Of a stretch of 64,000 nucleotides of DNA, positions 12,362-54,153 are shown piece by piece. The notes under the pieces were generated by a model that was given only the letters and a program-made list of their open reading frames with translations, was not told the DNA's origin and made no database searches. The translations under genes were made by a program, and so were the position numbers. Source of the DNA: Promethearchaeia archaeon (GTDB lineage: Archaea; Asgardarchaeota; Lokiarchaeia; Sigyniarchaeales; SOKP01); NCBI GenBank assembly GCA_029856045.1, contig JAHQWG010000035.1:64001-128000 (forward strand), in the 5' to 3' direction. Numbering within the stretch: position 1 is the stretch's first letter; the number at the start of each line of letters is the position of its first letter.

Positions 12362-12503
12362 AAGAAGACTAAAAATATACATATATAAAAAAAAAAAGGT
12401 AATTTTCAAATTAGAAAGAAATTCATGAAAATTTTTATATATAAATTTAATTAATTAAATAATATAAAAACAAACTTGAAAAAAATTTAAGGGAGTTGTT
12501 TTT

Positions 12504-12932
12504 TTGCCAAGAATGGATAAAAAAATTATAATTAAAGCGTCTTTAAATAAAATTTATGATATTATGAAGGACTATTCAACTTTACCTAGATGGAATATTG
12601 TTATAAATGAAGCTACTGAACTTGAACCCGGTAAATACTTCTTTAAAACAAATGTTGGAGATGTTATAAATACTGAAATAGAAAATATTCCAAATGAGAG
12701 AATGACATCGACACAAGAGGGAAGTCCGATGACTTCAATAGGATACATTTTTAAACCTGTAGATGAAGGAACCGAAGTGACACTTTGGGCAGAATTTGAA
12801 TTAGAGGATCAAAGAAATGTTATGGACATAGCAGGAGATTTATTTTTAAAGAGTTTGAAAGTATATGTTGATTATATTGAAGCTGGTGGAAATCCAGAAG
12901 AATATAAGAAGAAATTTTCAGCAATAAAGTAA
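12504..12932 (+). CDS. SRPBCC/START-like (polyketide cyclase) protein
   Basis: IIIKASLNKIYDIMKDYSTLPRW and FKPVDEGTEVT patterns. Confidence 0.8.
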   Translation: MPRMDKKIIIKASLNKIYDIMKDYSTLPRWNIVINEATELEPGKYFFKTNVGDVINTEIENIPNERMTSTQEGSPMTSIGYIFKPVDEGTEVTLWAEFELEDQRNVMDIAGDLFLKSLKVYVDYIEAGGNPEEYKKKFSAIK

Positions 12933-13103
12933 ATTTAAAAATTCCTAAAATTCTTCCTAAATCGTTAATATCTCATGCTTCTTGGAGATATGGAGTGATT
13001 TTAATTATGATAATACCATTTTCCTTTCTTTTTATTATTATAAGTCTTAATAAAAGAAATATCTGGAAAAAATAATATAATAAAAAAAAAAAATTAATTA
13101 TTA

Positions 13104-13616
13104 TTAATCTCTGCCTGCAAAACCCCCAATAAGACCTAAAAAGCCTCCTGCAATTAATACGTATGTCCCAATATCCACTGTGTCAAGTTCTAATATTTTA
13201 AGCGGAATTATTCCATCTATTAATGGCTCGGCATCCCAAAATAAAAATGTATATATACTCAATTCCGTAGGAAGAACCCCAAAACCATATAATAAAATAT
13301 ATATACCTATTAAAATTGGCAATATTGAGCCTATAATCACTAATACGCGACTTTTTACCCCAATTAACTGAAAGATCCCTGAAATCAAGAAAAAAATAAT
13401 AACGACTACAATAATATAAATTGCAAAAGTTGGTAAACTAAATAAAGTCGCATATGAATCAGGATTGGTTAACATCTCTGGGATTTGTTTCATTGAGCCT
13501 ATTCCACCAAGATAAATGGTTACAAAAAAGAATTCAAATGCAAAAAAAGATAAAAAGTATGTTGCTACTATCGTTAAAAGTCCAGCTAATACACTAAAAA
13601 TTTTTCCAGCACCCAT
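13104..13616 (-). CDS. Four-TM membrane protein
   Basis: Hydrophobic segments, C-terminal GTYVLIAGG; GAGG SD. Confidence 0.75.
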   Translation of the reverse strand: MGAGKIFSVLAGLLTIVATYFLSFFAFEFFFVTIYLGGIGSMKQIPEMLTNPDSYATLFSLPTFAIYIIVVVIIFFLISGIFQLIGVKSRVLVIIGSILPILIGIYILLYGFGVLPTELSIYTFLFWDAEPLIDGIIPLKILELDTVDIGTYVLIAGGFLGLIGGFAGRD

Positions 13617-13780
13617 TTTTTAATAAACCTCTTAAAAAAGATTTCGATTATAAATAATTTAATCACAGAATTATTTATAATTTATGTTATTTCTTTTACG
13701 AAATTGTCTTGTTTTTTATTCAAAAAAAAATAAATTATATATTTAAAGCGATTTTTAAGTGAATAAATATTTTCTTTATT

Positions 13781-14968
13781 GTGATACCACCTTGGCTAAG
13801 CTTTCTTCTGATAATTGCATTAATTATTATTTTTTCTAAAAAAGAATTGAGCATCATTTTGTTTTTTGGGGCTCTAATATTTGGAATTTTAACTCAAGTA
13901 GATGTAATAATTTCGATTATTTCAGTCTTTACGGATCCTTCAATCATCCTATTAGCACTTTCAGTAACATTAATCCCCATTCTCGGTGGTATAATGGAAG
14001 AGTCAGGCCTAATGCTTGAATTGGTTCAAAAAATGAAGGTTTCTAAAAGAGTTGCATTAATGACAGCTCCCGGGCTTTTTGGGCTTTTACCAGTACCGGG
14101 AGGGGCACTTCTCTCCGCTCCAATCATAGATCAAATAGATCCAAACCTTAATCCTAATCGTAAGGTTGGAATCAATGTATGGTATCGTCATGTATTAATT
14201 TTAATTTATCCTCTTTCCTCCACTCTGATTGTAGCCAGCGCCTTATCCGGTATTTTATTATATATCATTATTGCAGCGATGATTATTCCATTTATCATTA
14301 TGATAATTATTGGATACTACACATTACTTCGAACAATTGAAAAAACGGAAGACATAAATACTCGGGATCTTAAAAGAGTGTTCTTTAATATTATCCCCAT
14401 TGTGATAGCACCAATTATTGATTTTATTGGTAGAATTGTTCTAAATCTTACTATTCCAGAGATTTTTTTATTTATTGGATTAGTCTTGAGCATTTGGGTT
14501 GCTTTAAAATTTGCAAAAATGCCGGCATCAAATATAAGAAATATCGCTAAAAAAATGCAAATTTGGAGATTTCCACTTTTGATTATTGCAATGTTCTTAT
14601 TTTTAGATATATTCATAAATTCAGGGGTGCCTGAAGATATTGGAGCATTAGATCTACCGTTTATATTATTAATTTGCATCGGATTTTTACTTGGATTTGC
14701 TTTAGGGCGCGTTATATTACCAATTTCGATTTTAATTCCGATTTATTTAATCCAAAACATCTTAATAATTATGCCTCTACTTGATTTTGTATTTCTATAT
14801 TTTGCTACATTTCTGGGCTATTTAATGACCCCACTTCACCCATGTCTTGCATACAGTATCCAATACTTCAAAACTGTCTATAAAAAAGCTTTCAAAGATA
14901 TAGCAATTCCCACATTTATCTGCTTTGGTTTATTACTAATCGTTTATTTGATTATCAGTTTATTTTAA
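13781..14968 (+). CDS. DUF401 family permease
   Basis: GLLPVPGGALLSAP, NVWYRH, GYLMTPLHPCL. Confidence 0.85.
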   Translation: MIPPWLSFLLIIALIIIFSKKELSIILFFGALIFGILTQVDVIISIISVFTDPSIILLALSVTLIPILGGIMEESGLMLELVQKMKVSKRVALMTAPGLFGLLPVPGGALLSAPIIDQIDPNLNPNRKVGINVWYRHVLILIYPLSSTLIVASALSGILLYIIIAAMIIPFIIMIIIGYYTLLRTIEKTEDINTRDLKRVFFNIIPIVIAPIIDFIGRIVLNLTIPEIFLFIGLVLSIWVALKFAKMPASNIRNIAKKMQIWRFPLLIIAMFLFLDIFINSGVPEDIGALDLPFILLICIGFLLGFALGRVILPISILIPIYLIQNILIIMPLLDFVFLYFATFLGYLMTPLHPCLAYSIQYFKTVYKKAFKDIAIPTFICFGLLLIVYLIISLF

Positions 14969-15047: not shown

Positions 15048-16304
15048 TTATATAGGAGGGCCTTTTTCCGGATGCCTTTTATTTAATTTTAAAATTTGAA
15101 AATCGCTCCTATTTATTATATTTGTATAGTTCTCTAAAAGATTAAGTGGATAAGTATTTATGGTAAATTTGAGTGGATCTGAATGCAAATTATGAGGAAC
15201 TATATCTCGAAAATCTTCCAGACTTACATTAAAATGATGTTCCTTTTCATTTTTTAGGTCAATAATTACAATTTCACTTTCATCTGATTCTTCAATTTCT
15301 TTCCCAACTGAGATATCTTGAACAATATCAGACTTAATTATTAGCGCATCAAACACAACACCTTCAATTACTTCTTTTATCAATTTTGATGAGTTTACTA
15401 AACTTTTGAATCCTGAAATTCTCTTTTTACCGAAAATATGATTTTTAACCTGATAATTAATTGTGCTCATTTTAATTCCAATCTTATCACAAATGCTTGA
15501 GATCGAAACGGAATTAATATTTTTAGCAGTTATTGTTAAGGTGGTCACCACACCTGCGATTACATCATCTTTTGTATTCTTGATAAATGGCCAAAATTTC
15601 AGCAGTATAATATTTGCAATTTTAATGAAATCATTGTTAAAATTAAAGGATAAACAAATTTCATTTATTTTTTTAAGGATCAATTGTTTTCTATCTCTCC
15701 TAGCGTAAGCTGGATAATAGCGAGATGCTTCCATTAAAATCTCTTTAAAATCGCTTTTACTTACGTTTAAAATGTTTATAAAATGTGGAATTTCGAAATT
15801 AATTGCTTTTACTTTTGAAACCATAAAGAGAATAACGGGTACTAACTTCTCTGGTGCCCTTCCTTTAGTTCCTTTTTTTAAATTTTTCCAAACATTCTTA
15901 AAAACGAAGATACAATCAGATTTTAACGAGATAGGAAGATGTAGAGCAGTTATAATACGATTAAATTCGGAATCAGCTATTTGAAGTACAAAATTTCTAT
16001 ATCCATTAGAAATCCTTTGCATCTTTGACATTCGCTCTAACTCATATGAGCGTGAATTTGCTCTCCTTTCTAAATTAGTCCCTAATTTTGTTGTTTTCTT
16101 AAGTTCATTAGAATAAACTTGAATTGAATCTTGATTATAGGGAGAGTTATATCGAAAGATCGGTAAATCTAATGTTAATCCACAATTTCTACAAACATAA
16201 ACACCACCAGACTCGATAATGTCTTCTGATCTACAGCCGTCACAGAAAAATCCAATCGTTTTTTCCGGTAAATCAAATATTTGAAGGTTTTTATTAAACA
16301 TCAT
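15048..16304 (-). CDS. Divergent TFB/TFIIB paralog (Zn ribbon plus two cyclin folds, C-terminal tail)
   Basis: CDGC..VYVCRNCG ribbon; EFNRIITALHLP; KGRAPEKL; terminal HTH SISSICDKIGIKMSTI. Confidence 0.75.
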   Translation of the reverse strand: MMFNKNLQIFDLPEKTIGFFCDGCRSEDIIESGGVYVCRNCGLTLDLPIFRYNSPYNQDSIQVYSNELKKTTKLGTNLERRANSRSYELERMSKMQRISNGYRNFVLQIADSEFNRIITALHLPISLKSDCIFVFKNVWKNLKKGTKGRAPEKLVPVILFMVSKVKAINFEIPHFINILNVSKSDFKEILMEASRYYPAYARRDRKQLILKKINEICLSFNFNNDFIKIANIILLKFWPFIKNTKDDVIAGVVTTLTITAKNINSVSISSICDKIGIKMSTINYQVKNHIFGKKRISGFKSLVNSSKLIKEVIEGVVFDALIIKSDIVQDISVGKEIEESDESEIVIIDLKNEKEHHFNVSLEDFRDIVPHNLHSDPLKFTINTYPLNLLENYTNIINRSDFQILKLNKRHPEKGPPI

Positions 16305-17574: not shown

Positions 17575-20106
17575 TCATGCTAATGTATTAAACCCCTCAA
17601 ATTCTTTTATTTTGCTTTTATTTTTTCTTGATTTTGTTGATATTATTATTGATTTACAGATTGTTAAGTTTAATCCTGTTTTATGTCGCAATATATGAGG
17701 ATTTTCAGAAAGAACTTTTGATGCAATATGATATCCAGCATTATACAAAATCCGACCCCTGACTCTTCCCACATTCCTCAACCTTAAAACTAAATCAAAT
17801 AATTCTTCACGAATTCCGTGTGTAATTCGGATTATTAATGTTTCACATAAATTTGCAATTTTATCATCATCTAAATAAGAAGCAATTATTCCAATAAATT
17901 TGATAATTCTGATAACGTTTTCTTTAATTGAAAATAAATCCCCGGCATAAATTTTGAATTCATCCAATATATTTTGTAAAGGTTCTTCATCTGCCCACCA
18001 AATGAGTGGTTTCATCATCTTCATATTTCTGATTCTTGATTCAGATTTTAATACAATAAAAGCACACTTAATTAAACTTTTATAATCATTAACTTCACCG
18101 TTTTCTAACATTTTTCTAATTTTTACACCGCTTGACGGATACAGATATAATTTAACTATTAATTTGCCAAAATTGGAGCAAATTAATCCATTCCTTTCCT
18201 TTAATAAAAGCCCTTTCTCAATTAAATAATCTAAGATATATTCTCCCTTCACACTTTTAGGGATTATATCATTTACGTATTTTATTATTCTTACATCGGT
18301 CTGAGAAACCAAAAATAAAAGAAAACTACTTATGTGATTACAAAAAATGAAGTTACAAGAATTTTGTCCTAGTAAATCTTCTCCAACTCTATTATTAAAA
18401 TTACAACTACATGTAATTCCGCTATCCATATCAAATCTTACATGAAAGACTCCAAAATCTGTTTTAACTATCCCTTCAATTGAATCCTTTTTTATATTTG
18501 TAATTTTTGTTTGAAAGTTAGACCTTTTAATTTTTTCTAAAACTTCTGGATTTGAATGCAATTTCAATATATTCTCTGTTGTTATTTCTTTAATTCGTAA
18601 GAATTGATCTATGGGAATTATTTTATCCTTTATGCAATTCCAATAATATGTTTTTTCAAAAAAATTTTTCAATTTATTAAATGAAATGGATTCTTGCTCA
18701 AAAACCCTTAATAATACTTGTTCTCTTAAAGTTTCAGTTGAATTTATAGCAGATTGAATAGAATTATATATAGGAACCAATCGTTTTCCATCCTCTCCTA
18801 TTTGAAAATATTGATCCTCCACCCATATTTTTTCTTCAATGTTTTTAACAAGTATTATTCCAAAACCTTTAAGATCTAAACCTGGTCTACCAGCTCTGCC
18901 CAGCATTTGGAAAATTTGATTTCTTGAAAAAGGTTCAAAATAAGTAAATCCATTGCCAAAATCTTCATAAAATTTAGAAAAATCGGTAATGTTATCAACA
19001 CTTGTTTGATATCTTTTAAAATCCTTAATAATTACCATTCGAGCTGGCGTGTTTATTCCTGCGGAGAGAGTTGTTGTGGAACAAATAACTTTTAAAATTC
19101 TCTTATTAAAATATTCTTCAATTATTTGTCGTTCTTTTGAGAGAAGTCCTGCATGATGGAAAACCACACCTCCTTTTATGCAGCTCTTTAATTCAGTAAT
19201 TCCACCCTTAATGTTTTCTAATTGCTGTGATAATTTTTTACAGATTGATAGTTCTTGAGGATCCAACTTTTTCTTTATAAAATTTTTAAGGTATAGAGCA
19301 AGCTTCTGCGCTTCCTTCCTTTTATTCACAAATATTATAATTTGGCCTTTTTTCTTTAAAATTTCATTTACATAATGTTTGATGGTTGAATCTTTATTTT
19401 GAGACACTTTGATATCATATTTTAATGGTACTGGCCTTTCATTAGAAATTATTAAGATAAATTCTTGCCCAAGTGACGATAACCAGTTGCAAAAAAATTC
19501 AGGATTTGCTACTGTGGCAGATAAAGCAATAATTTGAGGATTAATCAAAAATTCATTCAATCTAACAATTAATGATTCTAACCGCGGACCTCTGTCTCTC
19601 TCTCCAACACAATGTATTTCATCTATAATAATTGTCGTAATTTCATTAATCCATTTTTCTTCTTTATAATTTCTTAATATTGAGTCCATCTTCTCATATG
19701 TAGTTATAATTATATTAGCTTTTTGAAGTTCCTTATCGTCAATGACAATATCCCCGATTGATAATTCTATTTTTATTCCGTATTTACTGTAATTTTTCGA
19801 GAAATATTGATACTTCTCGGAAGCCAAAGCTTTAAATGGTACTAAGTAAATTGCCTTTCCATCGTTTTTGAAAATATTATTAACAATACACAGTTCACCA
19901 ATCAATGTTTTTCCGCTACCGGAGGGTGCAACAATTAAAAAAGATTTATTAAAATAGAGTCCCTTAATAATTGCTTCTTTTTGGATATCTCGTAAATTAT
20001 AAATGTTATTTTTTAATAAGATTCTAATTATTCTCTCATCGTCTACATATTGATTAAATTCTGAGATTATTTCCTCCGGTGATTTTTCAAAATTAGTCGT
20101 TGTCAT
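17575..20106 (-). CDS. Ski2-like (Hel308/Hjm-family) DNA helicase with inserted SWIM Zn finger and C-terminal HhH
   Basis: APSGSGKT, DEIH, SAT, QMLGRAGRPG; CSC-x17-CNH insert; LRNVGRVRGRILY. Confidence 0.9.
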   Translation of the reverse strand: MTTTNFEKSPEEIISEFNQYVDDERIIRILLKNNIYNLRDIQKEAIIKGLYFNKSFLIVAPSGSGKTLIGELCIVNNIFKNDGKAIYLVPFKALASEKYQYFSKNYSKYGIKIELSIGDIVIDDKELQKANIIITTYEKMDSILRNYKEEKWINEITTIIIDEIHCVGERDRGPRLESLIVRLNEFLINPQIIALSATVANPEFFCNWLSSLGQEFILIISNERPVPLKYDIKVSQNKDSTIKHYVNEILKKKGQIIIFVNKRKEAQKLALYLKNFIKKKLDPQELSICKKLSQQLENIKGGITELKSCIKGGVVFHHAGLLSKERQIIEEYFNKRILKVICSTTTLSAGINTPARMVIIKDFKRYQTSVDNITDFSKFYEDFGNGFTYFEPFSRNQIFQMLGRAGRPGLDLKGFGIILVKNIEEKIWVEDQYFQIGEDGKRLVPIYNSIQSAINSTETLREQVLLRVFEQESISFNKLKNFFEKTYYWNCIKDKIIPIDQFLRIKEITTENILKLHSNPEVLEKIKRSNFQTKITNIKKDSIEGIVKTDFGVFHVRFDMDSGITCSCNFNNRVGEDLLGQNSCNFIFCNHISSFLLFLVSQTDVRIIKYVNDIIPKSVKGEYILDYLIEKGLLLKERNGLICSNFGKLIVKLYLYPSSGVKIRKMLENGEVNDYKSLIKCAFIVLKSESRIRNMKMMKPLIWWADEEPLQNILDEFKIYAGDLFSIKENVIRIIKFIGIIASYLDDDKIANLCETLIIRITHGIREELFDLVLRLRNVGRVRGRILYNAGYHIASKVLSENPHILRHKTGLNLTICKSIIISTKSRKNKSKIKEFEGFNTLA

Positions 20107-20180: not shown

Positions 20181-20195
20181 TTTATAAAGAAAAAA
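20181..20195 (-). promoter_or_regulatory. T-run/TATA promoter motif
   Basis: TTTTTT-C-TTTATAAA upstream of the helicase. Confidence 0.45.
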
Positions 20196-20254: not shown

Positions 20255-20267
20255 TTTTATTTAAATA
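20255..20267 (+). promoter_or_regulatory. T-run/TATA promoter motif
   Basis: TTTT-A-TTTAAATA, 24 nt before ATG 20292. Confidence 0.55.
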
Positions 20268-20291: not shown

Positions 20292-20717
20292 ATGGATAAA
20301 AGATTATTTGATCCAAACGACATAAAAATTTCACGCTCTGGAATATGGAAAATAGAAAGAGACCATGGAATTTTATATTTTGGGGTTAATTTAGACAATA
20401 AATCAGATTTTAATATTTATAATCTCAAATTTTTCTTACACAAAATTCCCATAAATATGAAATTAGAGCCAAAACAAATTCATAGAATTCCAAATTTGAA
20501 TCCAAAAACGAATATCTCAGTTTATTTCAGGTTAATTCCCGAAAAAGATTATATTTTTGATACTGTAGAAGGATTTATTTCATATTATGATTTACGAGAA
20601 AAAATATATATTAGAGATATAGAGCCGTATAAGATCGAATTTCAAAGAGAATTATATACACCGAATAAAATTTTCATAAGGAATTTGAATCAAAAAGTTA
20701 AGTCTTCTTCTATTTAA
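20292..20717 (+). CDS. Hypothetical Ig-like beta-sandwich protein
   Basis: V.LDNKSDF.I.NL and IPNLNP....VYF pattern resembles adaptin-ear/CARDB-type sandwiches. Confidence 0.55.
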   Translation: MDKRLFDPNDIKISRSGIWKIERDHGILYFGVNLDNKSDFNIYNLKFFLHKIPINMKLEPKQIHRIPNLNPKTNISVYFRLIPEKDYIFDTVEGFISYYDLREKIYIRDIEPYKIEFQRELYTPNKIFIRNLNQKVKSSSI

Positions 20718-20749: not shown

Positions 20750-20766
20750 TTTTTTTTATTTAAATA
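20750..20766 (+). promoter_or_regulatory. T-run/TATA promoter motif of the membrane operon
   Basis: T8-A-TTTAAATA, 27 nt before ATG 20794. Confidence 0.55.
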
Positions 20767-23917: not shown

Positions 23918-24796
23918 GTGTCAAAATTATTAGAAGCCACTAAATTGTTATTGAATAATCAAAATTACAATGACCTGTATGAATTATATTTGGATTTGAT
24001 TTATAACGCGGTCAATGAAATTGGTGTAAAATTAAATATTACAACACTTAAATCCAACGAAAAAATTTATGATTATATGATAATAATCGATAAATTCCTC
24101 TTTAATAATATCAATATTGTATTATTTGGAGAACATATTCAGAAAGTAGTTAATTTTCACACTATATATGATAAAATTAAAAATACTTCAGAAAACCTAA
24201 AACTAGATCAGTATGATATAAAAGAATTAATTGAAGAATACTATGAACTTAAAGCCCTAGCTGTCCCTAATGTTTTTCAAGATATTGAAAGTTATAAGAC
24301 AAGTAAATATGCCAATTTTCAAACACTCAAAGCGTGTAATTTAGTTTTTGGAAAAAAAAATAAGAATTATGATAATACCAACATTGAAGATGCATTGTAT
24401 GAGATGATCTCCAATCGTATTCAAAATGATTCTGATAAAATCAGGAGAGATTATGTGAAAGGAAAACTAGCTTTTGATAAAAGTTTCAGAAAATTAGCAA
24501 CCTTAGATTCAATCCAAAAAACAATAGAGTCGTCAAAGAAAAAATTCAGCCAAATAGAGATCAGTGGAACCTTATCTGACAATTTAGAATATAAAATCTA
24601 TACATTACGGATGCCGGGATATCTTATATTATCTTTTGGAATTATTTCAGCGATATTATTAGGTTTTATATTTATGGAGATATTTTCAGTGCCAATACTG
24701 GCTGTATCATTATATCCTAGTGCTATATTTTCTGGATTAATTTGTTTTATTTGTTTTTATATCTTTATTAAATTCTTTATTAGAGGAAAAAAATGA
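23918..24796 (+). CDS. Helical protein with C-terminal TM hairpin
   Basis: Abuts both neighbours; two C-terminal hydrophobic helices. Confidence 0.7.
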   Translation: MSKLLEATKLLLNNQNYNDLYELYLDLIYNAVNEIGVKLNITTLKSNEKIYDYMIIIDKFLFNNINIVLFGEHIQKVVNFHTIYDKIKNTSENLKLDQYDIKELIEEYYELKALAVPNVFQDIESYKTSKYANFQTLKACNLVFGKKNKNYDNTNIEDALYEMISNRIQNDSDKIRRDYVKGKLAFDKSFRKLATLDSIQKTIESSKKKFSQIEISGTLSDNLEYKIYTLRMPGYLILSFGIISAILLGFIFMEIFSVPILAVSLYPSAIFSGLICFICFYIFIKFFIRGKK

Positions 24797-31229: not shown

Positions 31230-31245
31230 TTTTTTTATTTAAATA
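31230..31245 (+). promoter_or_regulatory. T-run/TATA promoter motif
   Basis: T7-A-TTTAAATA. Confidence 0.5.
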
Positions 31246-32700: not shown

Positions 32701-32707
32701 AGAGTGA

Positions 32708-37271: not shown

Positions 37272-37289
37272 AATTTAAAAACAAAAAAA
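37272..37289 (-). promoter_or_regulatory. T-run/TATA promoter motif
   Basis: T7-G-TTTTTAAATT, 24 nt before ATG 37247. Confidence 0.55.
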
Positions 37290-37401
37290 TAACTTGGATT
37301 AGGAAAAATCTTTTAATTTCTTAGCATTTTAAAAATTTTTGTTTAAATATGCTCATTTTATTTTTTGTCTGATTAATATTAAAAAAAACAGGATATATAA
37401 A

Positions 37402-37947: not shown

Positions 37948-37965
37948 TTTGGAGGTCTATAGCTT

Positions 37966-38613: not shown

Positions 38614-38628
38614 AGGTATATTGTTAAT

Positions 38629-42161: not shown

Positions 42162-42313
42162 TTTATCTTCTTATTTATTGTTTTCTAAATAAAAAATTCC
42201 AATTTTTAGAAAGAATATATACTCCTTATTATTAAAGAAAAATGTTTTCTTTTTTTTTATTTAAATAGATCTATTTTATTTTTCACATAAATTTCCAAAA
42301 TTATTAAAAAGAG

Positions 42314-43462
42314 ATGTTTAGTTTGCAAATTGAAATACAAGAAAATACATTTTATTGTAAAAAATGTATTAATCATAAAGGATGTATCAGCGTAGAGATA
42401 GGAAGTGATGGCATTTGCAATCACTGTAAAGAACCTGATAAACATTTTGTTGTCCCAATATCACCCGAATTAAAAGAGCAAAAACGTAAAGAAATGGAAA
42501 AAATCCTAAAAAAAATAAAAGCCAAACATAGAAATCGGGAATATGACTGTGTGATTGGTTTTTCTGGAGGAAAAGATTCTACATATCTGTTGTACATTCT
42601 TGCCGTTAAATATGGACTTAATGTTCTTGCAGTTTCAGTAAATTCAGGTTATATGAATAAGGTTGCTTTAAATAATATTAAACAAACGATTAAAAACTTA
42701 GGTGTAGAGCATATTTTTATTAAACCACCAATAGAAGTATTCACTAAATTATATCGCTGGCACATTATTAACTATGATTCTAACGATTTACCTATGATGA
42801 AGAAAATCTGTGATAATTGCACTGATCTTATTGACTCGCTTGTGATTAAAGAAGCAGCACGTAGGGGAATCCCTTATGTTTTTATTGGGCTTTCGCCAGA
42901 CGAGAATGCAAGACATTTCTTTGAAATTCCTAAAGAAAAATTAAATCATTCCTTGTTACCTAAACATTGGAAATCTGATTTTTATAGTAATGAGGATAGA
43001 AAATGGTGGTGGGATCCAAATGAATTTGGATCAAAAAAGGCACCTCGATTGTTATTTCCTCTTCACATCTGGCCGTACAATGAGAAGGAAGTCATTGCAA
43101 CGGTTGAGAGAGCAGGTCTCGTAAGGAGAGGTAAAGCTGATCCTCTAAAAACTAATTGCATTCTTATCTGGGCTATAGGTATGTATGATATAATGCGATT
43201 TGGACACCATATGTATAGACTACAAATCGCAAAATTGGTACGACAGGGATTAGGAGACAGAGAGCATTGGTTGGAGATTTTTAACAGGTTAGAACCTCTC
43301 GTAGCGAATGGTGAGTTCAATACTCAACAATTAGATCGTTTTTTTAAGCAAATAGGTATGACAAGAGATGAATTGATAGAATTAGCTCGATTTAAACGGA
43401 AAAATGATCCTCGAAGGGATAATATTGAGAATGCTATGAAATTAAAAGGAATTTCCTTATAG
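42314..43462 (+). CDS. PP-loop ATPase, N-acetyl sugar amidotransferase (WbpG-like) family
   Basis: CKKC..GICNHC, YDCVIGFSGGKDS, ICDNC. Confidence 0.8.
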   Translation: MFSLQIEIQENTFYCKKCINHKGCISVEIGSDGICNHCKEPDKHFVVPISPELKEQKRKEMEKILKKIKAKHRNREYDCVIGFSGGKDSTYLLYILAVKYGLNVLAVSVNSGYMNKVALNNIKQTIKNLGVEHIFIKPPIEVFTKLYRWHIINYDSNDLPMMKKICDNCTDLIDSLVIKEAARRGIPYVFIGLSPDENARHFFEIPKEKLNHSLLPKHWKSDFYSNEDRKWWWDPNEFGSKKAPRLLFPLHIWPYNEKEVIATVERAGLVRRGKADPLKTNCILIWAIGMYDIMRFGHHMYRLQIAKLVRQGLGDREHWLEIFNRLEPLVANGEFNTQQLDRFFKQIGMTRDELIELARFKRKNDPRRDNIENAMKLKGISL

Positions 43463-43525: not shown

Positions 43526-44746
43526 TCAGTAAACAAGATCCACTATTTTTTCTGCTTCAGGAATTAATTGTAGTTTAGGATTTAATTTTCCTTTTTCTAG
43601 ATTAAATATTATATGATCTTCAAATAATTCTCCTGATGGTGTGATAACTCTTTTCCAACTTGGAATATATCCTCTAACTTTAAATCCAACATCACAAAAT
43701 ATTCTTTGATGATTAGGTTTATAGGCTGATACAAAACATTCAATATAACGAACTTTTTTTTCAGAAGCATATCGTTTAAGTTCTTTAAGTAAGACAAACA
43801 ATTCAATATCATTATTCACATTATACTTAATCTTTTCGATGTTTTCAACAGTTGGTGTATATAAGAATTTGATATTGGAATCTGTTTCTAAAATCTTAAT
43901 TATAACCTTATGATATCCAAATTTATCAATTTCTTCATAAATTTTTACACTTTTTCTATTCCAAATCTTCCTATCTAAATTAAAATCATATTGAACTATT
44001 GGTTCTAAATAGTTTGCCTCTTCAAGATTATATTGTTTTTGAATAAATGAATATATCTTATTTATCTCTGGTATTAGAACAGGATTTTTTTTCCGTAAAG
44101 AAGATAAAACTTTCTCTGAGTAAATTGTATGGAAGATATCTGATTCTATATTATTTAAGAAAATATCCTTATTAGGTAGAAAAGCTAAGGGTTTTATACC
44201 ACAGATATTTGCTAAATATTGTGATTTTATATGAGCTGTTCGACATTCTGCGTACCATATATAAATAATATTTTTGAATGTACCCCACATTCCAATCATC
44301 GAGCCAATCATTAATTTCTTAACATTTGTAATTTTCTGATATTTCTTTTTTACTAATAACCCTCTCATATAACCTTTTTTTTGTTTTCTATTTAATACGT
44401 AAGTAAAACATCCTATAGTCTTTCCTCTAGGTGTTCTGAATAATACCCAATAATAATTTTTATTCAAAATCATCTTTTGAACTTCTACCGGATCTTCCAT
44501 TTCTTTATAAGGATATGTACCGTTATAGCAATCTTTATAAATTTCAGTTATATCATAGGCATCTTCAGGTGAAGCTAAGGTCAAACAGCAATCTAACCTA
44601 TCTAAATTTTTATCAATCTCGAAATTTAATTCCATATTTTCAGTTAGATCTGGATTAACTCCAATTTTAGTAAATTTTTCAATAAATTTTTCTGTAGAAT
44701 CTGAGGTTATCAATTTGGTTTTTATTATAAAACTACTTGAAGCCAT
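43526..44746 (-). CDS. GNAT-fold acyltransferase-like protein (tandem domains)
   Basis: YNGTYPY, RGLLVKKKYQ, ECRTAH..SQ, GFKVRGYIP. Confidence 0.7.
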   Translation of the reverse strand: MASSSFIIKTKLITSDSTEKFIEKFTKIGVNPDLTENMELNFEIDKNLDRLDCCLTLASPEDAYDITEIYKDCYNGTYPYKEMEDPVEVQKMILNKNYYWVLFRTPRGKTIGCFTYVLNRKQKKGYMRGLLVKKKYQKITNVKKLMIGSMIGMWGTFKNIIYIWYAECRTAHIKSQYLANICGIKPLAFLPNKDIFLNNIESDIFHTIYSEKVLSSLRKKNPVLIPEINKIYSFIQKQYNLEEANYLEPIVQYDFNLDRKIWNRKSVKIYEEIDKFGYHKVIIKILETDSNIKFLYTPTVENIEKIKYNVNNDIELFVLLKELKRYASEKKVRYIECFVSAYKPNHQRIFCDVGFKVRGYIPSWKRVITPSGELFEDHIIFNLEKGKLNPKLQLIPEAEKIVDLVY

Positions 44747-45075
44747 AAAAAAATCAGCATTACTATCTTTTAATTCTTTTAAAATTTGATAGGAACTGTA
44801 TAAAATGAGGATATTTAAAGAAAAAATTAAATTACATTACTAAAAGAATTGTAAAAACTTTTCAAACATAAAAACAAATAAGATCTAAGAATTTGAATAC
44901 ATTTTATTATCAAAAATTATAATATTTAGACAAATACTATTGAATAATTATAGGTTTTAGATAATATGGTATTAAAATTTAATTAGTAAATTTCTATTTG
45001 ATTAAAAATTTTTATTTAAATATGTCTGTTTTACTCTCCTTTAAAATAAATTTAGAAATAATTTTGAAACCATAA

Positions 45076-46239
45076 GTGAGAAAAATGGTATTAGAATATG
45101 AATTAGTAAAAAAAATCTATCAAACCCATGACTTAATAGAAATTGAATATGCTTTAGAATCTATCCTTGAAATTTCCGATAAACGATTGAAATCTAGAAT
45201 TGTAAGTGAAATTTTAAAATATCTAATTGAGAAATTTTTTGATAATATCTATAAAATAGCTGTTTATATCTGCCGTGATAATTCTGAAATTGTTGGATTT
45301 GTTATTGCTCAAATAGATCCTAGTTATCGAAGTTATGGTAAGTTGTGTGCTACTTTTGGATGGTTACGGGCTGATTCCTTAGAAACATGCAAAAAACTTA
45401 TGAATGCTTGTGAAAATTTTGCTAGAAAACATGGATTTCGAAAAATTAGAGGACCAATTAATTATCCAAAAGGTTTAGGTGGTATTGGAGTTCAAGTAGA
45501 TGGATTTAATGAGAAGTTATTTTATGGTGTTGCTTTCAATCCTATTAATATAGCAGATTATTTAGACAAGTTGGGATTTAAACGAGATGCCGAATATATT
45601 TGTGTTCATGTGACAGAAAAAACTTGGAAGAAGGGAAAAAAAATAGATAATAATGTTTGTTTAAGATTTCTTCCTTTAAAAGATATAATTGCAAAAGAAG
45701 AAGAGATTATGGAATTGACATCTAACGCGTTTAATTTCATTTTGCCTGATCATAGTGGAAGTGGTAGGTTTGATGAAGTTATGAGACAATATGCTGCAGT
45801 ACCAAAAACTCATTATAAATTGCCACCAAATTTTAACCCAAGAAACTATTCCGATATTCCAGAGTTTATTGAAGCATGGGAATCTTGTGACCTAGAAAAT
45901 GTAGTTACATGGGCTCCGATAGCATTTAATAGTTATACAGGAGAGATTGTTGGAGCCATCTTTTCACTTCCTGATCTTTATCAACTATGGCTTAGAGAAC
46001 CAATTACACGGGTTAATGTTGATACTGTTTTTGTTAAACCCGGTTATACAGGTAAAGGAATATTCTCTGCATTAAATAACATCGGACAGATCACTACCGG
46101 ATTCAACGGGATAAAATATATTGAAGGAACACATATCTGGAATAAGAATGAAGAAGCGGTACAGTCAATCTTTCCTCATACTAAACCTTTAAGAAAGCAT
46201 ATTATTTTTCAAAAAAGATTGCGTGCTCATAAAAAATAA
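45076..46239 (+). CDS. YghO-like tandem GNAT protein
   Basis: ATFGW, ARKHGFRKIRGPIN, VKPGYTGKGI, IEGTHIWNKN. Confidence 0.75.
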   Translation: MRKMVLEYELVKKIYQTHDLIEIEYALESILEISDKRLKSRIVSEILKYLIEKFFDNIYKIAVYICRDNSEIVGFVIAQIDPSYRSYGKLCATFGWLRADSLETCKKLMNACENFARKHGFRKIRGPINYPKGLGGIGVQVDGFNEKLFYGVAFNPINIADYLDKLGFKRDAEYICVHVTEKTWKKGKKIDNNVCLRFLPLKDIIAKEEEIMELTSNAFNFILPDHSGSGRFDEVMRQYAAVPKTHYKLPPNFNPRNYSDIPEFIEAWESCDLENVVTWAPIAFNSYTGEIVGAIFSLPDLYQLWLREPITRVNVDTVFVKPGYTGKGIFSALNNIGQITTGFNGIKYIEGTHIWNKNEEAVQSIFPHTKPLRKHIIFQKRLRAHKK

Positions 46240-46252: not shown

Positions 46253-46951
46253 TTATTTTTTAATTATTTTATCTATTAAGTCCTTTATAACATCAGATGA
46301 TTTTCTCAGACTTATAAATCCAACTAAATGAAGACTTTTAAAAATTTTATTTTTTACTTGATAATTTACTGTGCTCATTTTAATTCCTATTTTATTACAT
46401 ACGTGTACAAAAGGGATGGAATTTATTCCCAATGCAATCATTGTTAAAATAAAAATTACTCCCACTATTACATCATCTTTTGTATTTTTTATATAAGGCC
46501 AAAATTTTTTAAAAATCTCTTGAGATTTATTAGTAAAACCTTTGTCAAATCTAAAAATTTCTTTTATTTTGTTTATTTTTTTGATAATAACGGTCTTTCT
46601 ATCTCTTTTAAAATAAGTCGGATAAAAAATCGCTGCTTGCTTTAAAATTTCAGTAAATTCTTTTTTATTTGAATTGATCTTTTCTATAAAATCAGCAATT
46701 CTAATATCAAATCCTTTTGCTTTAAAAACCATATAAATTATTACTGGGGCTAACTTTTTTGGTGACCTTGATTTAGTTCCTTTTCTCATCTGTTTCCATA
46801 TCTGTAAAAAAATCTGAAAACATTCTTCATATAAGTTTGGATATTTTGCCAAATCCAAAATAATTATCAATTTGTTTAAAATTAATTCAAAACTATCAAT
46901 TACAGTTTTCTCATAGTAAGAATATTGAATAAATTGTTCAGATTTGCTCAT
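46253..46951 (-). CDS. TFB-like cyclin-fold protein lacking the Zn ribbon (paralog of 15048-16304)
   Basis: Shared blocks KGTK.R.P.KL.PVI, KFWP.IKNTKDDVI.GV, KIGIKMST.NYQVKN.IF. Confidence 0.75.
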   Translation of the reverse strand: MSKSEQFIQYSYYEKTVIDSFELILNKLIIILDLAKYPNLYEECFQIFLQIWKQMRKGTKSRSPKKLAPVIIYMVFKAKGFDIRIADFIEKINSNKKEFTEILKQAAIFYPTYFKRDRKTVIIKKINKIKEIFRFDKGFTNKSQEIFKKFWPYIKNTKDDVIVGVIFILTMIALGINSIPFVHVCNKIGIKMSTVNYQVKNKIFKSLHLVGFISLRKSSDVIKDLIDKIIKK

Positions 46952-46972: not shown

Positions 46973-46987
46973 TATTTAAATAAAAAA
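46973..46987 (-). promoter_or_regulatory. T-run/TATA promoter motif
   Basis: T6-A-TTTAAATA, 21 nt before ATG 46951. Confidence 0.55.
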
Positions 46988-48162: not shown

Positions 48163-48284
48163 ATCAAGAAAGTTATAAGACATAAGCTTTTAAAGAAAAA
48201 ACATCATTTCATCTTTTTTTCTTTATATATTTTGATTATTATTTTCTCATAAAAGGTAATTGAACGATCAAATTTTGATGAGTA

Positions 48285-48617
48285 ATGAGTAAAACAAGTG
48301 TGTTAAAAATATTTGGAGTATTTTCAATAGGTATAATATCATTAGTGGTATTTTTCCAAGATGAAATTATGGTCCATCTTATTGATCCAATCCAAGAAAT
48401 TTTTAGATATATATTTAATTTAATTCCAGTGATATTATTTTCCGCAGCCGGAATATTTTTAATAAGCGGATTTATAAGTAAAAGGAATAGAGTAAGTTGT
48501 CTCATATTCAGTGCATTATGTTTCTTATTTGGGTTCTGGTTATCTAATCCAAGTGGTTTAGAAGATATTGCAAATATGTTTGCTGGAAGACCAGTAACTC
48601 CAAAAGGTTGGCATTAA
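48285..48617 (+). CDS. Small membrane protein (leader helix plus TM hairpin), VirB2/CedA1 pilin-like
   Basis: Three hydrophobic helices with basic loop ISKRNR. Confidence 0.5.
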   Translation: MSKTSVLKIFGVFSIGIISLVVFFQDEIMVHLIDPIQEIFRYIFNLIPVILFSAAGIFLISGFISKRNRVSCLIFSALCFLFGFWLSNPSGLEDIANMFAGRPVTPKGWH

Positions 48618-48642
48618 GTAAAAAAATGGGGGTAAATATAAA

Positions 48643-48900
48643 ATGTATAATTTATTTCAATTTCCAGATTTAATTGATATATTTACAAATCAATTACCTG
48701 TAAACTTGGCAGAGTTTTGGCAGTTTTTAACAGCAATTCTTTCATTATTGGGATTAACAGGACTTGTTATTTCAATTGTGTGCCTTTTACTCTCAATTAA
48801 AGTAAAATTTAAAGGATTATTGAGTTTTATGATATTTTCATTGATTTTATGTTTAATTTGCGGCTTCGATACCGGATTGATCTATTTTAAGATTATTTAA
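48643..48900 (+). CDS. Small TM-hairpin protein, pilin/CedA-like
   Basis: Two hydrophobic helices with basic loop IKVKFK; GGGGG SD. Confidence 0.5.
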   Translation: MYNLFQFPDLIDIFTNQLPVNLAEFWQFLTAILSLLGLTGLVISIVCLLLSIKVKFKGLLSFMIFSLILCLICGFDTGLIYFKII

Positions 48901-49025
48901 ATTAAAAATTTCTTGCTTTAAATTAATTTAAGAGGAAAATATTAACTATTTTCAATTATTCTAATTTTTTCTTTTAAATATCTTCATTGTATAATTATTT
49001 CAAAATTTAAGAAATTTTGATAATA

Positions 49026-50204
49026 ATGACAGAATTAAAATTAGTGAAAGGCATTCAAGCGAGACATATTAAGATTTTTACAGAGAACGGTATTACTACA
49101 GCAGAAGCTCTTGCTATGTCTGGTTTTAAGAGTATTACTGCAATGGAAGGTATTGGAGAAGCAACTTCTAAAAAACTTATTTGGAATGCCAGAAGTGCTT
49201 TGGGAATGAGTAGTTTTAAAACAATATCAGAGTTCCAAGAAAATCATGAATATATTAGCACAGGTTCTTTAAATTTTAATGCAATTTTAGGAGGTGGTAT
49301 AGAAACAGGTTTTATAACAGAAGTTTTTGGTCCATTTAAATCCGGAAAGACCAATTTAGCGCACACTTTGTGTGTTACTACACAATTACCAAAAGGAAAA
49401 GGTGGATTAAGTGGTGCTGTGATTTATATTGATACCGAAAATACATTTTCGAAAGAAAAAATCAAACGAATTACCAAGAGATTTGGTCTTAAACCCGAAA
49501 ATGTACTCCCGCACATTTTTCATGCGAGAATTTATAGTTCCGATCATCAAGCTCAAATGATTTTGGAAGCGGAGAAACTCGTAAAAGAAAAAAATGTTAG
49601 AATAATAATTTTAGATAGTTTAATGGCGCTTCTTCGAGCAGAATACATCGGAATTGGAATGCTTCCACAACGACAAGCTACATTAAATCAAATGATTCAT
49701 GCTCTTTCCAGAATTGCAGAGAGTTATAATATAGCGATCCTTGTAACAAATCAGGTTGCCCAACAAATAAAGGGAATGTTCAGCGGTATTGATGCAATTG
49801 GAGGGAATATCGTCGCTCATGGTTGCCAGATTCGGGTGATGTTTAAGACAAAAGGGTTCGCCGCGAATAGTTCTCTTGAAAGAAAGGCAATTATTGTTGA
49901 TGCACCTGATTTACCTCCTGAGGAATGCCAGTTTTATATAACTCCAGCAGGGATCTCAGATACAGAGAAAATAGATTTTTCAAGTATGGAAGAAAATATA
50001 GAACCCAAATTTATTATGGCTAATGATGAATTTACCTTAGAAAAAATTAGAGGAATAGGAAAAAACATAATGGAGAAATTGGAACAAATAGGAATTACTA
50101 CTACTGAGCAATTGAAAGATACAAATCCCGAAGATCTTGCTAAAGATTTGCCAGGTATTTCAAGTAAAAAAGTAAAAGAATGGATTGAACAAATTCCTGC
50201 TTAG
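49026..50204 (+). CDS. radA: RadA/Rad51-family recombinase paralog with extra C-terminal HhH domain
   Basis: N-terminal HhH, GPFKSGKT, YIDTENTF, IILDS, VTNQV, IGGNIVAH; tail LEKIRGIGK. Confidence 0.85.
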   Translation: MTELKLVKGIQARHIKIFTENGITTAEALAMSGFKSITAMEGIGEATSKKLIWNARSALGMSSFKTISEFQENHEYISTGSLNFNAILGGGIETGFITEVFGPFKSGKTNLAHTLCVTTQLPKGKGGLSGAVIYIDTENTFSKEKIKRITKRFGLKPENVLPHIFHARIYSSDHQAQMILEAEKLVKEKNVRIIILDSLMALLRAEYIGIGMLPQRQATLNQMIHALSRIAESYNIAILVTNQVAQQIKGMFSGIDAIGGNIVAHGCQIRVMFKTKGFAANSSLERKAIIVDAPDLPPEECQFYITPAGISDTEKIDFSSMEENIEPKFIMANDEFTLEKIRGIGKNIMEKLEQIGITTTEQLKDTNPEDLAKDLPGISSKKVKEWIEQIPA

Positions 50205-50332: not shown

Positions 50333-51391
50333 TTATTTTATGGGTTTTTGCCCATATGTTTCATCTAATCCTTTAATTTTTATTTTCCTGGCTTGCATTG
50401 ATAAAATTATTACAATTACAACCACAATACTTACGAATATCATTAAAAAATAACCTTCTAGAGGGATTTCGAAATAAAATGTTGTGTTAAAATAGCCAGT
50501 ATTATTAAAAGTGTCATTTGCTGGGTTATTTATATCATAGGCTTGAGTTTCATTAATTCCTTGTCCAATTTTTCTAGATTCATATATTAAATATGCAAAA
50601 TTGTATCTGGGATATGCTGAAGCCAGACCAAATTTAAATAAATAAGACCCACGAAGTGCTGTTCCGAATAAAATGTCAGCAAATTCTAAATTTTCGGGAA
50701 GAGAAGTTGTATTATCAAATATAAGATAAGGATCTGCCTCAGGATCAATAATAGTTAAATTTACCGTTTGAGTTGCTGGTAATGTATAGGCAATCGGAGA
50801 AACTCTTACGACAATTATTCGGTAAAATGTATCATTTTCTAAATTAGCCAAAAATTGTAATTCATTATAAACTCCCGAACTGAAACAATGGACGTCATAA
50901 GATATTGTATCATTAAAAACACTTTCTAATAATTTGTCATATATGCACATATCCCCTTCCTTTACTGCAATATGTAAATTAAGATTATATTCAGTCTCAA
51001 CTGTTATTTTCAGTTCATAAGTTCCATTTTTTGCTGTTCCAAATGGCACAGTAAATTTTTTCGTATTTTCAAAATAAAAAGACATTGTCGCATTATAGAT
51101 TTCAAACTCAATACCGTCGGGATCTATCATATTTAGAGATATATTGCACTCATTAGGCGTTACTAATTCACAATTGATTATATAATAATAGTATTCTCTA
51201 AATTCTAAATCAAATATTCTTGTTGTTTTTGGAAAATTAAATTTATATACTTTATCAATGTAAGTCTTTGGCCACTCATTTGATTCGTTAGCAATCACAT
51301 TATAAATATTAAGATTGATTGAATTCATTAAAATTAATGATGCTAGAGAAAAAATCAAATATATAGATTTAATTTTTCTTTTAATACCCAT
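50333..51391 (-). CDS. Single-pass surface protein with two beta-sandwich repeats
   Basis: Signal helix; repeats MIDPDG..PFGTAKNGTY / IIDPEA..LFGTALRGSY; C-terminal TM; many sequons. Confidence 0.7.
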   Translation of the reverse strand: MGIKRKIKSIYLIFSLASLILMNSINLNIYNVIANESNEWPKTYIDKVYKFNFPKTTRIFDLEFREYYYYIINCELVTPNECNISLNMIDPDGIEFEIYNATMSFYFENTKKFTVPFGTAKNGTYELKITVETEYNLNLHIAVKEGDMCIYDKLLESVFNDTISYDVHCFSSGVYNELQFLANLENDTFYRIIVVRVSPIAYTLPATQTVNLTIIDPEADPYLIFDNTTSLPENLEFADILFGTALRGSYLFKFGLASAYPRYNFAYLIYESRKIGQGINETQAYDINNPANDTFNNTGYFNTTFYFEIPLEGYFLMIFVSIVVVIVIILSMQARKIKIKGLDETYGQKPIK

Positions 51392-51707
51392 TCACCTTTA
51401 ATTCTTTAAACTCTTTAATTAGATTATTTACTTCCGAACATTGGGTATAATCAATACAAGTAAAACATGGTCTATCAGTCCAAAAATAATTGGTTTTATT
51501 TTTCTTAAATATAAGCAAGATTGGCACTTTTGTATTTGGACATAATAAAGTAGTATTTTCAATCTTTCCTGCTTTGGGCACAGCATACGAAAAATTACAT
51601 GTCTCAGATTCACATTTTATAAATCTCTTATAAGATTTTGTCTTATAAAGAATTAATTCATCAAATCCGCATTTAGGGCATTCTCCAATAGAAATAATCT
51701 TTCTCAT
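51381..51707 (-). CDS. Topoisomerase I-type C4 Zn-ribbon protein
   Basis: GECPKCG..L......RFIKCESETCNFS, CP..CFTC. Confidence 0.75.
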   Translation of the reverse strand: MRKIISIGECPKCGFDELILYKTKSYKRFIKCESETCNFSYAVPKAGKIENTTLLCPNTKVPILLIFKKNKTNYFWTDRPCFTCIDYTQCSEVNNLIKEFKELKVNGY

Positions 51708-51731: not shown

Positions 51732-51749
51732 TATTTAAATAAAAAAAAA
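51732..51749 (-). promoter_or_regulatory. T-run/TATA promoter motif
   Basis: T9-A-TTTAAATA, 24 nt before ATG 51707. Confidence 0.55.
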
Positions 51750-52993: not shown

Positions 52994-53330
52994 ATAATTT
53001 TAAAATTTGATTTTTTTCTTCTTTCAAATCTTCATCTCTTTCTTTTAAAGAATTCATCACATCTTGTTTTAAAATAAGTTTTACAGGTTGTGATTGATTC
53101 TGATTCAATAGAGACATTAAAAGTACCAATTTCACTAAATCATTGTTTGTCGATTCCCCAATTTCTCCTTTCCCAAAAATTCCCCCACCAGAATTCTTAT
53201 ATTTTCGATATTTTGGATATAAATAAATTATTAAAATAATTCCAATAATTATTGAGGCTGTTAAGGGATCTTTCTGGAAAAAGATAAAACCCATCAATAT
53301 CATTACCCCATATATTATTAATTTAAACAT
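52983..53330 (-). CDS. Small two-TM membrane protein
   Basis: N-terminal hairpin, GAGG SD, overlaps the RadB-like gene. Confidence 0.65.
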   Translation of the reverse strand: MFKLIIYGVMILMGFIFFQKDPLTASIIIGIILIIYLYPKYRKYKNSGGGIFGKGEIGESTNNDLVKLVLLMSLLNQNQSQPVKLILKQDVMNSLKERDEDLKEEKNQILKLFDN

Positions 53331-53359
53331 TTTTTCTTACCTCATTTTTCTTCTCTATT

Positions 53360-54112
53360 CTACCATTGAGTGCGTGGTGAGAATTCATTTCCTCTTTTTT
53401 TTTTGCGATATTTAACTTCTATTTTATGTTTAGTATATTTGATTTTTCTCCGGGAGATTATTATGTTGTGATGGATTAAAATTAATCCGAGTCCGAGATA
53501 TCTCATCATGTAATAAAAGAGCATTGATAGAAAAAACAATGTTATTAATGAATCAAATATAATTAGTTCAAAAAAATTCATTAAATAATAGGAGATTGAC
53601 GAAGCAATAAAAATGACAATAATTTGAATTACTGTATATCTCTTGTTAGTGCTTTGAAATGATTTAGCAATCATTCGAATATCGGTATTGCTGGGACTCA
53701 TCTGTGTAAGAATTGAAATTGCGATATAAATTAAGATTAGGGCAATCATATAATTAACTACTGGACTGAATATATAGAAAAGGATAAAGCCAATAATATA
53801 GGTTCCAATAAATAAAGGTGCAAACGAGACCAAAAGACTCTGAAAAAAATTCGAATTTGCAGTGGCAATTTTTCCAGACAGACCACCTTTTTTATTTCTT
53901 ATTGGTATAATATTTGTTTCAGTTACTTTAGTATGAGTTAAAATACACATAATATAATGACTTACCTCATGAACGATAATCCCAATAAAGAAGCATGTAT
54001 GAAATAAACGATAAAATGTTATACTTTTACTACCTAAATGGGTTGTAACGAATGATAACAATGTGGAGATTACAAGAACTCCAATAAATATTATTAAACA
54101 GGTTACAATCAT
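53360..54112 (-). CDS. Membrane metallopeptidase, M50B/DUF3267-like
   Basis: GIIVHEVSH (HExxH), SFAP, PSNTD; multi-TM. Confidence 0.75.
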   Translation of the reverse strand: MIVTCLIIFIGVLVISTLLSFVTTHLGSKSITFYRLFHTCFFIGIIVHEVSHYIMCILTHTKVTETNIIPIRNKKGGLSGKIATANSNFFQSLLVSFAPLFIGTYIIGFILFYIFSPVVNYMIALILIYIAISILTQMSPSNTDIRMIAKSFQSTNKRYTVIQIIVIFIASSISYYLMNFFELIIFDSLITLFFLSMLFYYMMRYLGLGLILIHHNIIISRRKIKYTKHKIEVKYRKKKRGNEFSPRTQW

Positions 54113-54136
54113 GAATTGAGATTTTTATAAAATGAT

Positions 54137-54153
54137 TATTTAAAAATAAAAAA
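54137..54153 (-). promoter_or_regulatory. T-run/TATA promoter motif
   Basis: T6-A-TTTTTAAATA, 24 nt before ATG 54112. Confidence 0.55.

Follow-up and report, generated by a model that had tools for sequence, protein, structure and literature searches.

A 64,000-nt stretch of DNA from a Promethearchaeia archaeon (the window; GCA_029856045.1, contig JAHQWG010000035.1, positions 64,001-128,000, in a genome of 3.34 Mb and 27% GC) contains a gene island in which about 20 TATA boxes are preceded by a run of T residues in place of the transcription factor B recognition element (BRE). Sequence comparison indicates that these T-run sites are a real, conserved and island-specific class of predicted core promoters. 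In our model, to which we assign a probability of roughly 0.7, the promoters are dedicated to a transcription factor B (TFB) paralog encoded in the island, which reads them in the manner of an alternative sigma factor. A sigma-like switch using the local TFB paralogs had been proposed in an initial annotation of the window. The promoter class, its confinement to the island, a TFB with a changed helix and the co-variation of helix and promoter all speak for that proposal, but the two island paralogs proved non-equivalent in that only the one at 15048-16304 has a Zn ribbon.

Properties of the T-run promoters

All 20 of the promoters claimed in the initial annotation were located where it had placed them. 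Its consensus, T5-8-[ACG]-TTTWWAWA with a few looser copies, also held, as 13 sites match T5-[ACG]-TTTWWAWA in register, the other 7 being looser. The poorest matches are those at 32045, 37272, 48187 and 54137, with leave-one-out position weight matrix (PWM) scores of 4.8-9.3, and the one at 42182, whose core is TTTAGAAA; orthologues of the genes behind the loose sites at 37272 and 54137 bear the motif at 29-32 nt in relatives. In the host genus the full motif reads T5-8, one base, TTTAWATA, five bases and ATTTTA. It includes an element 3′ of the TATA box that had previously been missed, consisting of a purine at +13 followed by TTTTA, of which only the purine is family-wide. The sites and the units that they would serve are listed below; elsewhere in the text, minus-strand TATA boxes are numbered by the low end of the 8-mer, and spacing is measured from the first T of the TATA box to the start codon.

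8087-54112, no strand, whole island of about 46 kb; besides about 25 conserved families it holds genus-specific and unrelated genes
12382-12389, minus, TATA of a loose T-run promoter for 8666-12409 (prenyltransferase-like toroid protein), possibly also serving 8087-8641; in orthologues the motif lies 54-99 nt upstream
20181-20188, minus, TATA of a T-run promoter for the Hel308/Ski2-like helicase 17575-20106
20260-20267, plus, TATA of a T-run promoter for 20292-20717, leaderless at 32 nt
20759-20766, plus, TATA of a T-run promoter for the operon 20785/20794-28650 (three membrane-associated genes and a HerA-fold protein)
31238-31245, plus, TATA of a T-run promoter for 31302-31694, a ribonucleotide reductase alpha-domain protein
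32045-32052, minus, TATA of a T-run promoter for 31734-31994; weak site
32094-32101, plus, TATA of a T-run promoter 29 nt ahead of a 35-aa hydrophobic open reading frame (ORF)
32123-32230, plus, the 35-aa hydrophobic ORF, predicted from the motif and conserved in a genome of the same genus (G004)
32264-32271, plus, TATA of a T-run promoter for the operon 32326-35325 (an unknown protein, Hef helicase, DUF1922 Zn ribbon)
37272-37279, minus, TATA of a loose T-run promoter for the FEN1/XPG paralog 36195-37247, leaderless
37342-37349, plus, TATA of a T-run promoter for the roadblock-GTPase operon 37402-39798
42182-42189, minus, TATA-like core after a T-run, for 41685-42161; weakest site
42260-42267, plus, TATA of a T-run promoter for the PP-loop protein 42314-43462
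44812-44819, minus, TATA of a T-run promoter for the GNAT protein 43526-44746
45015-45022, plus, TATA of a T-run promoter for the GNAT protein 45076-46239
46973-46980, minus, TATA of a T-run promoter for the short TFB 46253-46951, 29 nt to ATG
48187-48194, minus, TATA of a loose T-run promoter for 46999-48162/48183
48222-48229, plus, TATA of a T-run promoter for small membrane genes 48285-48900
48973-48980, plus, TATA of a T-run promoter for the RadA paralog 49026-50204
51732-51739, minus, TATA of a T-run promoter for 51381-51707 (topo-type Zn ribbon) and 50333-51391
54137-54144, minus, TATA of a loose T-run promoter for the operon 54112-51767 (HEXXH membrane protein, small membrane protein, RadB-like ATPase, Whirly-like protein)

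The motif was not equally frequent upstream of random genes, a possibility that the initial annotation had raised. A T5 run occurred at 12 of 16 upstream TATA cores in the cluster and at 5 of 450 in the remaining genome (p=6e-17). The 4.3 kb of island gaps held 14 motif copies, as compared to a mean of 0.8-1.3 and a maximum of 6 in 500 shuffles (Markov order 1-4), and the base composition of these gaps equals that of other gaps; an artefact of AT composition was rejected on both grounds. Genome-wide, 15 of the 21 matches with a PWM score of at least 18 were island sites, the same sites on which the PWM had been trained, and a loose regular expression gave 164 matches. Strong gene-facing copies outside the island (C27:187284, C43:2741, C36:69169, C43:9617 and C15:21300) may be outlying regulon members.

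Because the motif faces genes and is missing from convergent gaps (10 copies in divergent gaps and 4 in sense orientation in tandem gaps, with none antisense and none convergent), the sites are neither terminators nor reversed BREs, as had been argued from the sequence before. For ten sites a start codon follows at 28-35 nt, bearing out the claim of leaderless spacing; for the remaining sites the distance is 53-94 nt. Two of the ten starts need qualification, in that the TTG start behind 12382 is doubtful and the start behind 32094 belongs to the 35-aa ORF, which was initially uncalled. A TATA box at a fixed distance from the gene and facing it is what is expected of an archaeal core promoter; both the orientation and a peak at 29 and 32 nt in relatives conform to this.

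An A-rich BRE adjoined the TATA box at 0 of 16 cores in the cluster as opposed to 106 of 450 elsewhere, and at 1 of 62 as opposed to 9 of 44 in relatives. The initial annotation had contrasted the T-runs with purine BREs of housekeeping genes. Its four examples exist, but only pyrB (61070) is a housekeeping gene, the others being an acyltransferase, a polyketide-cyclase-fold protein and an unknown gene. The purine element is about 2-fold enriched genome-wide (2.0 per kb in divergent vs 1.0 per kb in convergent gaps), no clear motif emerged from tRNA upstream regions tried as a canonical BRE standard, and a genome-wide k-mer contrast yielded no clear BRE consensus. The contrast that the initial annotation drew with housekeeping BREs is weak.

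The two TFB genes of the island

The genome contains four ordinary TFB genes (one of them at C53:11309-12166) and two genes for the TATA-binding protein (TBP), none of them within the window. The TBP genes, on contigs C20 and C41, are closely related to each other and lie outside the island. Two further TFB genes are found in the island itself.

15048-16304, minus, long island TFB of 418 aa, with a Zn ribbon, two cyclin folds, an altered helix-turn-helix (HTH; GIKMSTINYQV) and a C-terminal extension
46253-46951, minus, short island TFB of 232 aa, with both cyclin folds and the same HTH, without Zn ribbon or reader, behind a leaderless T-run promoter

The long TFB is only about 15-18% identical to solved TFB/TFIIB proteins. 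Its family match is PRK00423 (E 1e-4), and hhalign to ordinary TFBs gave 98%. The AlphaFold2 model has a predicted local distance difference test score (pLDDT) of about 90 over residues 90-310, which form two cyclin folds with a C-terminal HTH, and its top Foldseek matches were TFIIB, TFB and Brf (1d3u_B, TMt 0.73). The Zn-ribbon cysteines C21, C24, C38 and C41 are nearly invariant in the family. A predicted complex with TBP scored 0.46, as opposed to 0.01 for the best control, with contacts agreeing to at least 93% and a partner pLDDT of at least 85; TFB and TBP being a solved pair, this speaks for likeness only. The mark was reached by 58 of 80 solved and 2 of 110 mismatched pairs, and at scores of 0.60 or below by 7 of the 80 and both mismatches. 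With its changed helix and its absence among the PF00382 (Pfam TFIIB) matches in the genome, the long copy does not qualify as a canonical TFB, and both island copies retain the HTH, which sets them apart from TFB3 (truncated, without HTH, with a coiled coil). By its modelled fold, the long TFB belongs to the TFB family but falls outside both canonical TFBs and TFB3.

It is through its second cyclin fold that a TFB reads the BRE, and through its Zn ribbon that it recruits polymerase (PMC7289017, PMC4581349). We deduced the base-contacting residues by alignment to 1d3u. The BRE-reading helix is KMSTIQxQ in the island family (KMSTINYQ in the window copy) vs TEVTVRNR in ordinary TFB. M279, S280 and Q285 are invariant in 66 island-TFB homologues, and a conserved Q ahead of the first HTH helix is V or I in the island family. 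All four ordinary TFBs retain the P. woesei TFB helix, T-E-V/A-T-V/L-R-x-R. A helix that is changed yet conserved is as expected of a new specificity, and the long island TFB is the predicted reader that probably recognises the T-run directly. The gene for the long TFB had no T-run promoter of its own in the genomes that we examined.

The short TFB is 46% identical to the long copy and covers profile positions 101-320 only; its open frame of 235 codons lacks the N-terminal third. In the TFB tree it grouped with the long copy of the host genus (support 97/92), and it is conserved in genomes of the same genus. A partial island on contig C87 of another genome (G014) encodes a 212-aa TFB without a Zn ribbon, which grouped with host-genus sequences on a long branch. 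An N-terminally truncated Sulfolobus TFB2 still binds promoters but cannot recruit polymerase, and acts as a dominant negative (10.64898/2026.09.06.749720). Because the short island TFB has no ribbon yet is itself under a T-run promoter, its features would suit an inhibitor more than another sigma-like factor; by analogy, we tentatively regard it as a candidate feedback inhibitor, with the odds slightly against.

Islands in related genomes

With the PWM trained on the window, motif clusters were detected next to the island TFB of relatives. Across 11 islands from other genera, a T-run was present at 46 of 62 leaderless-spaced TATA cores (background 0 of 44) and at 111 of 166 TATA cores overall (background 2 of 213), the background being DNA from four of the island genomes plus G022. 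The TATA-ATG distance in relatives' islands peaked at 29 nt (21 cases) and 32 nt (11 cases), the spacing class was kept between orthologous island genes, and the motif was still present although these islands have 29-35% GC. The genome-wide ratio of motif to reversed control was 509/258 (1.97) in 27 TFB-positive genomes vs 57/66 (0.86) in 8 genomes without a detected TFB or the island gene F19, a comparison in which related genomes are not independent data points and several of those eight genomes are incomplete. In two genomes only F19 was found: the contig of G035 ends at the expected place of the TFB, and G032 retains one island gene.

Homologous islands are also present in two genomes of the same order, Promethearchaeum syntrophicum MK-D1 (near DSAG12_02152-02155, with the TFB DSAG12_02155; NZ_CP042905.2, about 1,730,000-1,787,000) and Ca. 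Lokiarchaeum ossiferum (near NEF87_004779-004787, with the TFB NEF87_003786). We refer to the T-run islands as family 1 and to these two as family 2. The family-2 TFBs are more distant (E 1e-25 in MK-D1 and 2e-14 in L. ossiferum) and have the helix ITASTVYSH or VSASTVYTR; the TFB tree has long branches, and these TFBs may or may not form a single clade. A T-run was found at 1 of 13 island promoters in MK-D1 and 0 of 8 in L. ossiferum. Instead, the element 5′ of the TATA box is TNNGNY, typically TTYGAT, with the same start spacing (mostly 28-30 nt). With the pattern defined post hoc, it occurred at 9 of 13 island sites vs 2 of 35 others in MK-D1 (p=2e-5) and at 7 of 8 vs 0 of 24 in L. ossiferum (p=2e-6), and at 0 of 58 sites in family-1 islands. 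Of the matches to a strict, exact family-2 pattern, 5 of 29 in L. ossiferum and only 2 of 21 in MK-D1 were within 30 kb, so that a clear result in both strains came with the looser TNNGNY alone. From these sequences, helix and cis-element differ together between the two families, which supports the pairing, short of proof.

Among the listed rows of an MK-D1 expression table, the one island gene, DSAG12_02152, had 296 reads per kilobase per million (RPKM) vs about 130-420 for its neighbours in the list, which is uninformative. A cluster look-up returned a second, near-identical MK-D1 protein set (DSAG12_03578, QEE17742, QEE17768), with one match per query in the current chromosome; DSAG12_03581 had an RPKM of 0, and this set may represent a previous assembly or a variant that co-occurs.

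The left edge of the island, at 8087, lies beyond the limit of 12382 given in the initial annotation. In at least 11 relatives some 25 families reappear, in shuffled order and with flanks that differ across genera. The gene for the HerA-fold protein, used as a marker, was present in 85 of 105 genomes of the host family, 6 of 9 of the MK-D1 family and 1 of 2 of a third family; in several near-complete genomes no island was found. By these counts the island is dispensable and conserved in Lokiarchaeia. In G004 it is split, with F18, F19 and the HerA-fold gene on C10, and the separated parts retain T-run promoters; on C3 and C10 of this genome (L077:13926-19228 and L078:7222-9057) a duplicated pair (an 83-aa and a 342-aa TPR-like ORF) and several small ORFs, all outside the island, also have strong T-run promoters. 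Second partial island copies within one genome were seen at G014:C87 and at 389-404 kb of G027:C9.

24793-28650, plus, 1285-aa protein that combines hydrophobic N-terminal segments with a core of the HerA/TrwB/CedB type

The core of this protein matched HerA with a Foldseek E value of 3e-13 and a CedB cluster of the Atlas at 0.89 (a lead only); PDB and Pfam sequence searches gave no match, leaving the fold search as the only informative one. The island Hel308, Hef, FEN1 and RadA are second copies, each with another gene elsewhere in the genome. Other island genes encode a RadB-like ATPase, a roadblock-GTPase pair, GNATs, a HEXXH membrane protein and small membrane proteins, as well as a Whirly-like protein that is a lead only and whose nearest Atlas feature clusters are viral. 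The island membrane proteins had no family match, no search aimed at CedA-type channels having been made. The island Hef (32708-34792) has a faint nuclease-domain match (E 0.01), and 40164-40589 is a short ERCC4/XPF-like C-terminal fragment; judged by sequence, helicase and nuclease of Hef may be split between the two genes. The protein of 31302-31694, present in G004 as well, is a stand-alone ribonucleotide reductase alpha domain (PF17975, E 3e-21) with a T-run promoter, and positions 8946-9860, in the gene for the 1247-aa prenyltransferase-like toroid protein, contain an internal 300-nt repeat (80% identity, 615-nt spacing).

Proposed mechanism, alternatives and meaning

TBP binds the TATA box. 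In our model, the altered HTH in the second cyclin fold of the long TFB would read the T-run in place of an A-rich BRE and its Zn ribbon would recruit RNA polymerase, while ordinary TFBs would be poor at these promoters. Since the long TFB would be made from its own non-T-run promoter, the island would be turned on as a block. Less firmly, the ribbon-less copy, itself a target, would occupy the promoters without recruiting polymerase and thereby shut off the wave. The least certain step is the output, most likely a DNA-exchange or recombination programme because of the second RadA, FEN1, Hel308 and Hef copies, the HerA/CedB-type fold and the Whirly-like lead; we give this interpretation even odds. 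A more far-reaching proposal, that the island-encoded helix and its cognate BRE co-evolved away from the housekeeping pair in a lineage-specific manner to give a true sigma-like system in Lokiarchaeia, is one that we consider possible but less likely than not.

Several observations weigh against this model. Some island-type TFB homologues are located outside islands, such as the one at L072:10001-11218, which adjoins a dnaK-dnaJ-grpE operon, an ordinary TFB and CRISPR genes. G032, although 99% complete, had no TFB match and yet gave a motif-to-control ratio of 29/19 and kept its one island gene under the motif. The L. ossiferum TFB lies 1.2 Mb away from the island core, the co-variation of helix and promoter is essentially one contrast between two clades, and TNNGNY was chosen after the sites had been viewed. 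The Walker A motif of the 1285-aa HerA-fold protein looks degenerate, its lysine seemingly missing. Finally, F7 (8087-8641), found in islands of both families, and F5 (34789-35325), found in at least family 1, could be regulators; searches with them gave no informative match.

The last of these points, together with the motif-bearing gene of G032, fits the strongest alternative, in which the T-run is a null BRE or an operator and an ordinary TFB initiates, aided in trans by the island TFB in the style of TFB3 or controlled by F7 or F5 as activator or repressor. TFB3 is known to activate in trans together with canonical TFB (PMC7289017, PMC6101594), and Sulfolobus UV promoters carry a motif upstream of the core elements (PMC5817253). 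We nevertheless consider this alternative unlikely, as the element sits directly next to the TATA box, at the very place bound by the TFB HTH, the island TFB retains both cyclin folds and a strictly conserved, different helix whereas TFB3 is without HTH, and a null BRE would hardly be replaced by the specific TNNGNY in family 2. F24, a 200-aa helical family, was rejected as the reader; it has no similarity to TFB profiles and was not found in the host genome, where the motif is intact.

It is less probable still that the island represents a provirus or an integrative element, whole or as a remnant, with its own TFB and promoters. Flanks that differ between genera, patchy presence and extra copies are compatible with such an element, as are the TFB homologues of Asgard viruses and mobile elements (10.1101/2021.07.29.453957), the viral Atlas neighbours of the Whirly-like protein and the conjugation-type ATPase fold. 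However, the only tyrosine integrase match of the genome is on another contig, the window is without tRNA, no terminal repeats were found, and ten unknown island proteins matched no PHROG family beyond one match at E 0.004. The breadth of the HerA-fold marker in the host family and the retention of promoters by the split parts in G004 also argue against it, although the island may have an ancient, domesticated mobile-element origin. That the T-runs are a chance product of AT-rich DNA, terminators or structural poly-T tracts, to which the GC content of 27% and the loose genome-wide matches lend some colour, is largely refuted and very improbable in light of the equal gap composition, the shuffles, the orientation with no convergent copies, the fixed spacing and the replication in relatives' islands of higher GC content.

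The dedicated reading of T-run promoters by the long island TFB would have partial parallels. The DNA-damage regulon of Sulfolobales TFB3 (Ups pili and Ced import; PMC6101594, PMC6101591) likewise combines a TFB paralog with DNA-exchange and repair genes, including a HerA/VirB4-type protein. TFB3, however, is without HTH and works with TFB1, whereas the island TFB is full length with a rewired HTH, its element replaces the BRE, and its targets are clustered in one island. In the Sulfolobus D-phase regulon, a full-length paralog, TFB2, drives a gene wave and its N-terminal truncation is a competitive inhibitor, like the short island copy (10.64898/2026.09.06.749720). TFB2 promoters retain a BRE that is similar but altered in its spacing, and tfb2 is an essential, autoregulated gene, whereas in the island the BRE sequence itself is changed, the long TFB gene lacks the motif, and no island was detected in several near-complete genomes. 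Haloarchaea also have several TFB and TBP paralogs, with some promoter specificity (PMC7289017). The reported specificity is only of 'a certain degree', unlike the island paralog, which is far from ordinary TFBs and whose promoters are nearly island-exclusive. Bacterial alternative sigma factors such as streptococcal ComX/SigX follow a similar logic, in which a specialised initiation factor, with an anchor element of its own, switches on DNA-uptake and recombination genes. ComX/SigX belongs to the sigma family, whereas the island has TBP-dependent TATA promoters; homology between sigma4 and the TFB HTH has been argued (PMC4581349).

A sigma-factor-like role has long been suggested for archaeal TFB paralogs, but the studied cases that we found keep a similar BRE (TFB2), lack the helix (TFB3) or have partial specificity (haloarchaea). 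What is new here is a paralog with a rewired helix paired with a different, nearly exclusive BRE; no publication describing the island or the promoter class was found in a literature search that took in few subscription journals. The two natural helix/element pairs allow a direct swap with purified proteins, and the homologous islands in cultured MK-D1 and L. ossiferum make the model testable in culture. It bears on the possible beginnings of TFIIB-family specialisation, and a second set of recombination genes with membrane components in Asgard archaea would bear on the control of DNA exchange before eukaryotic sex.

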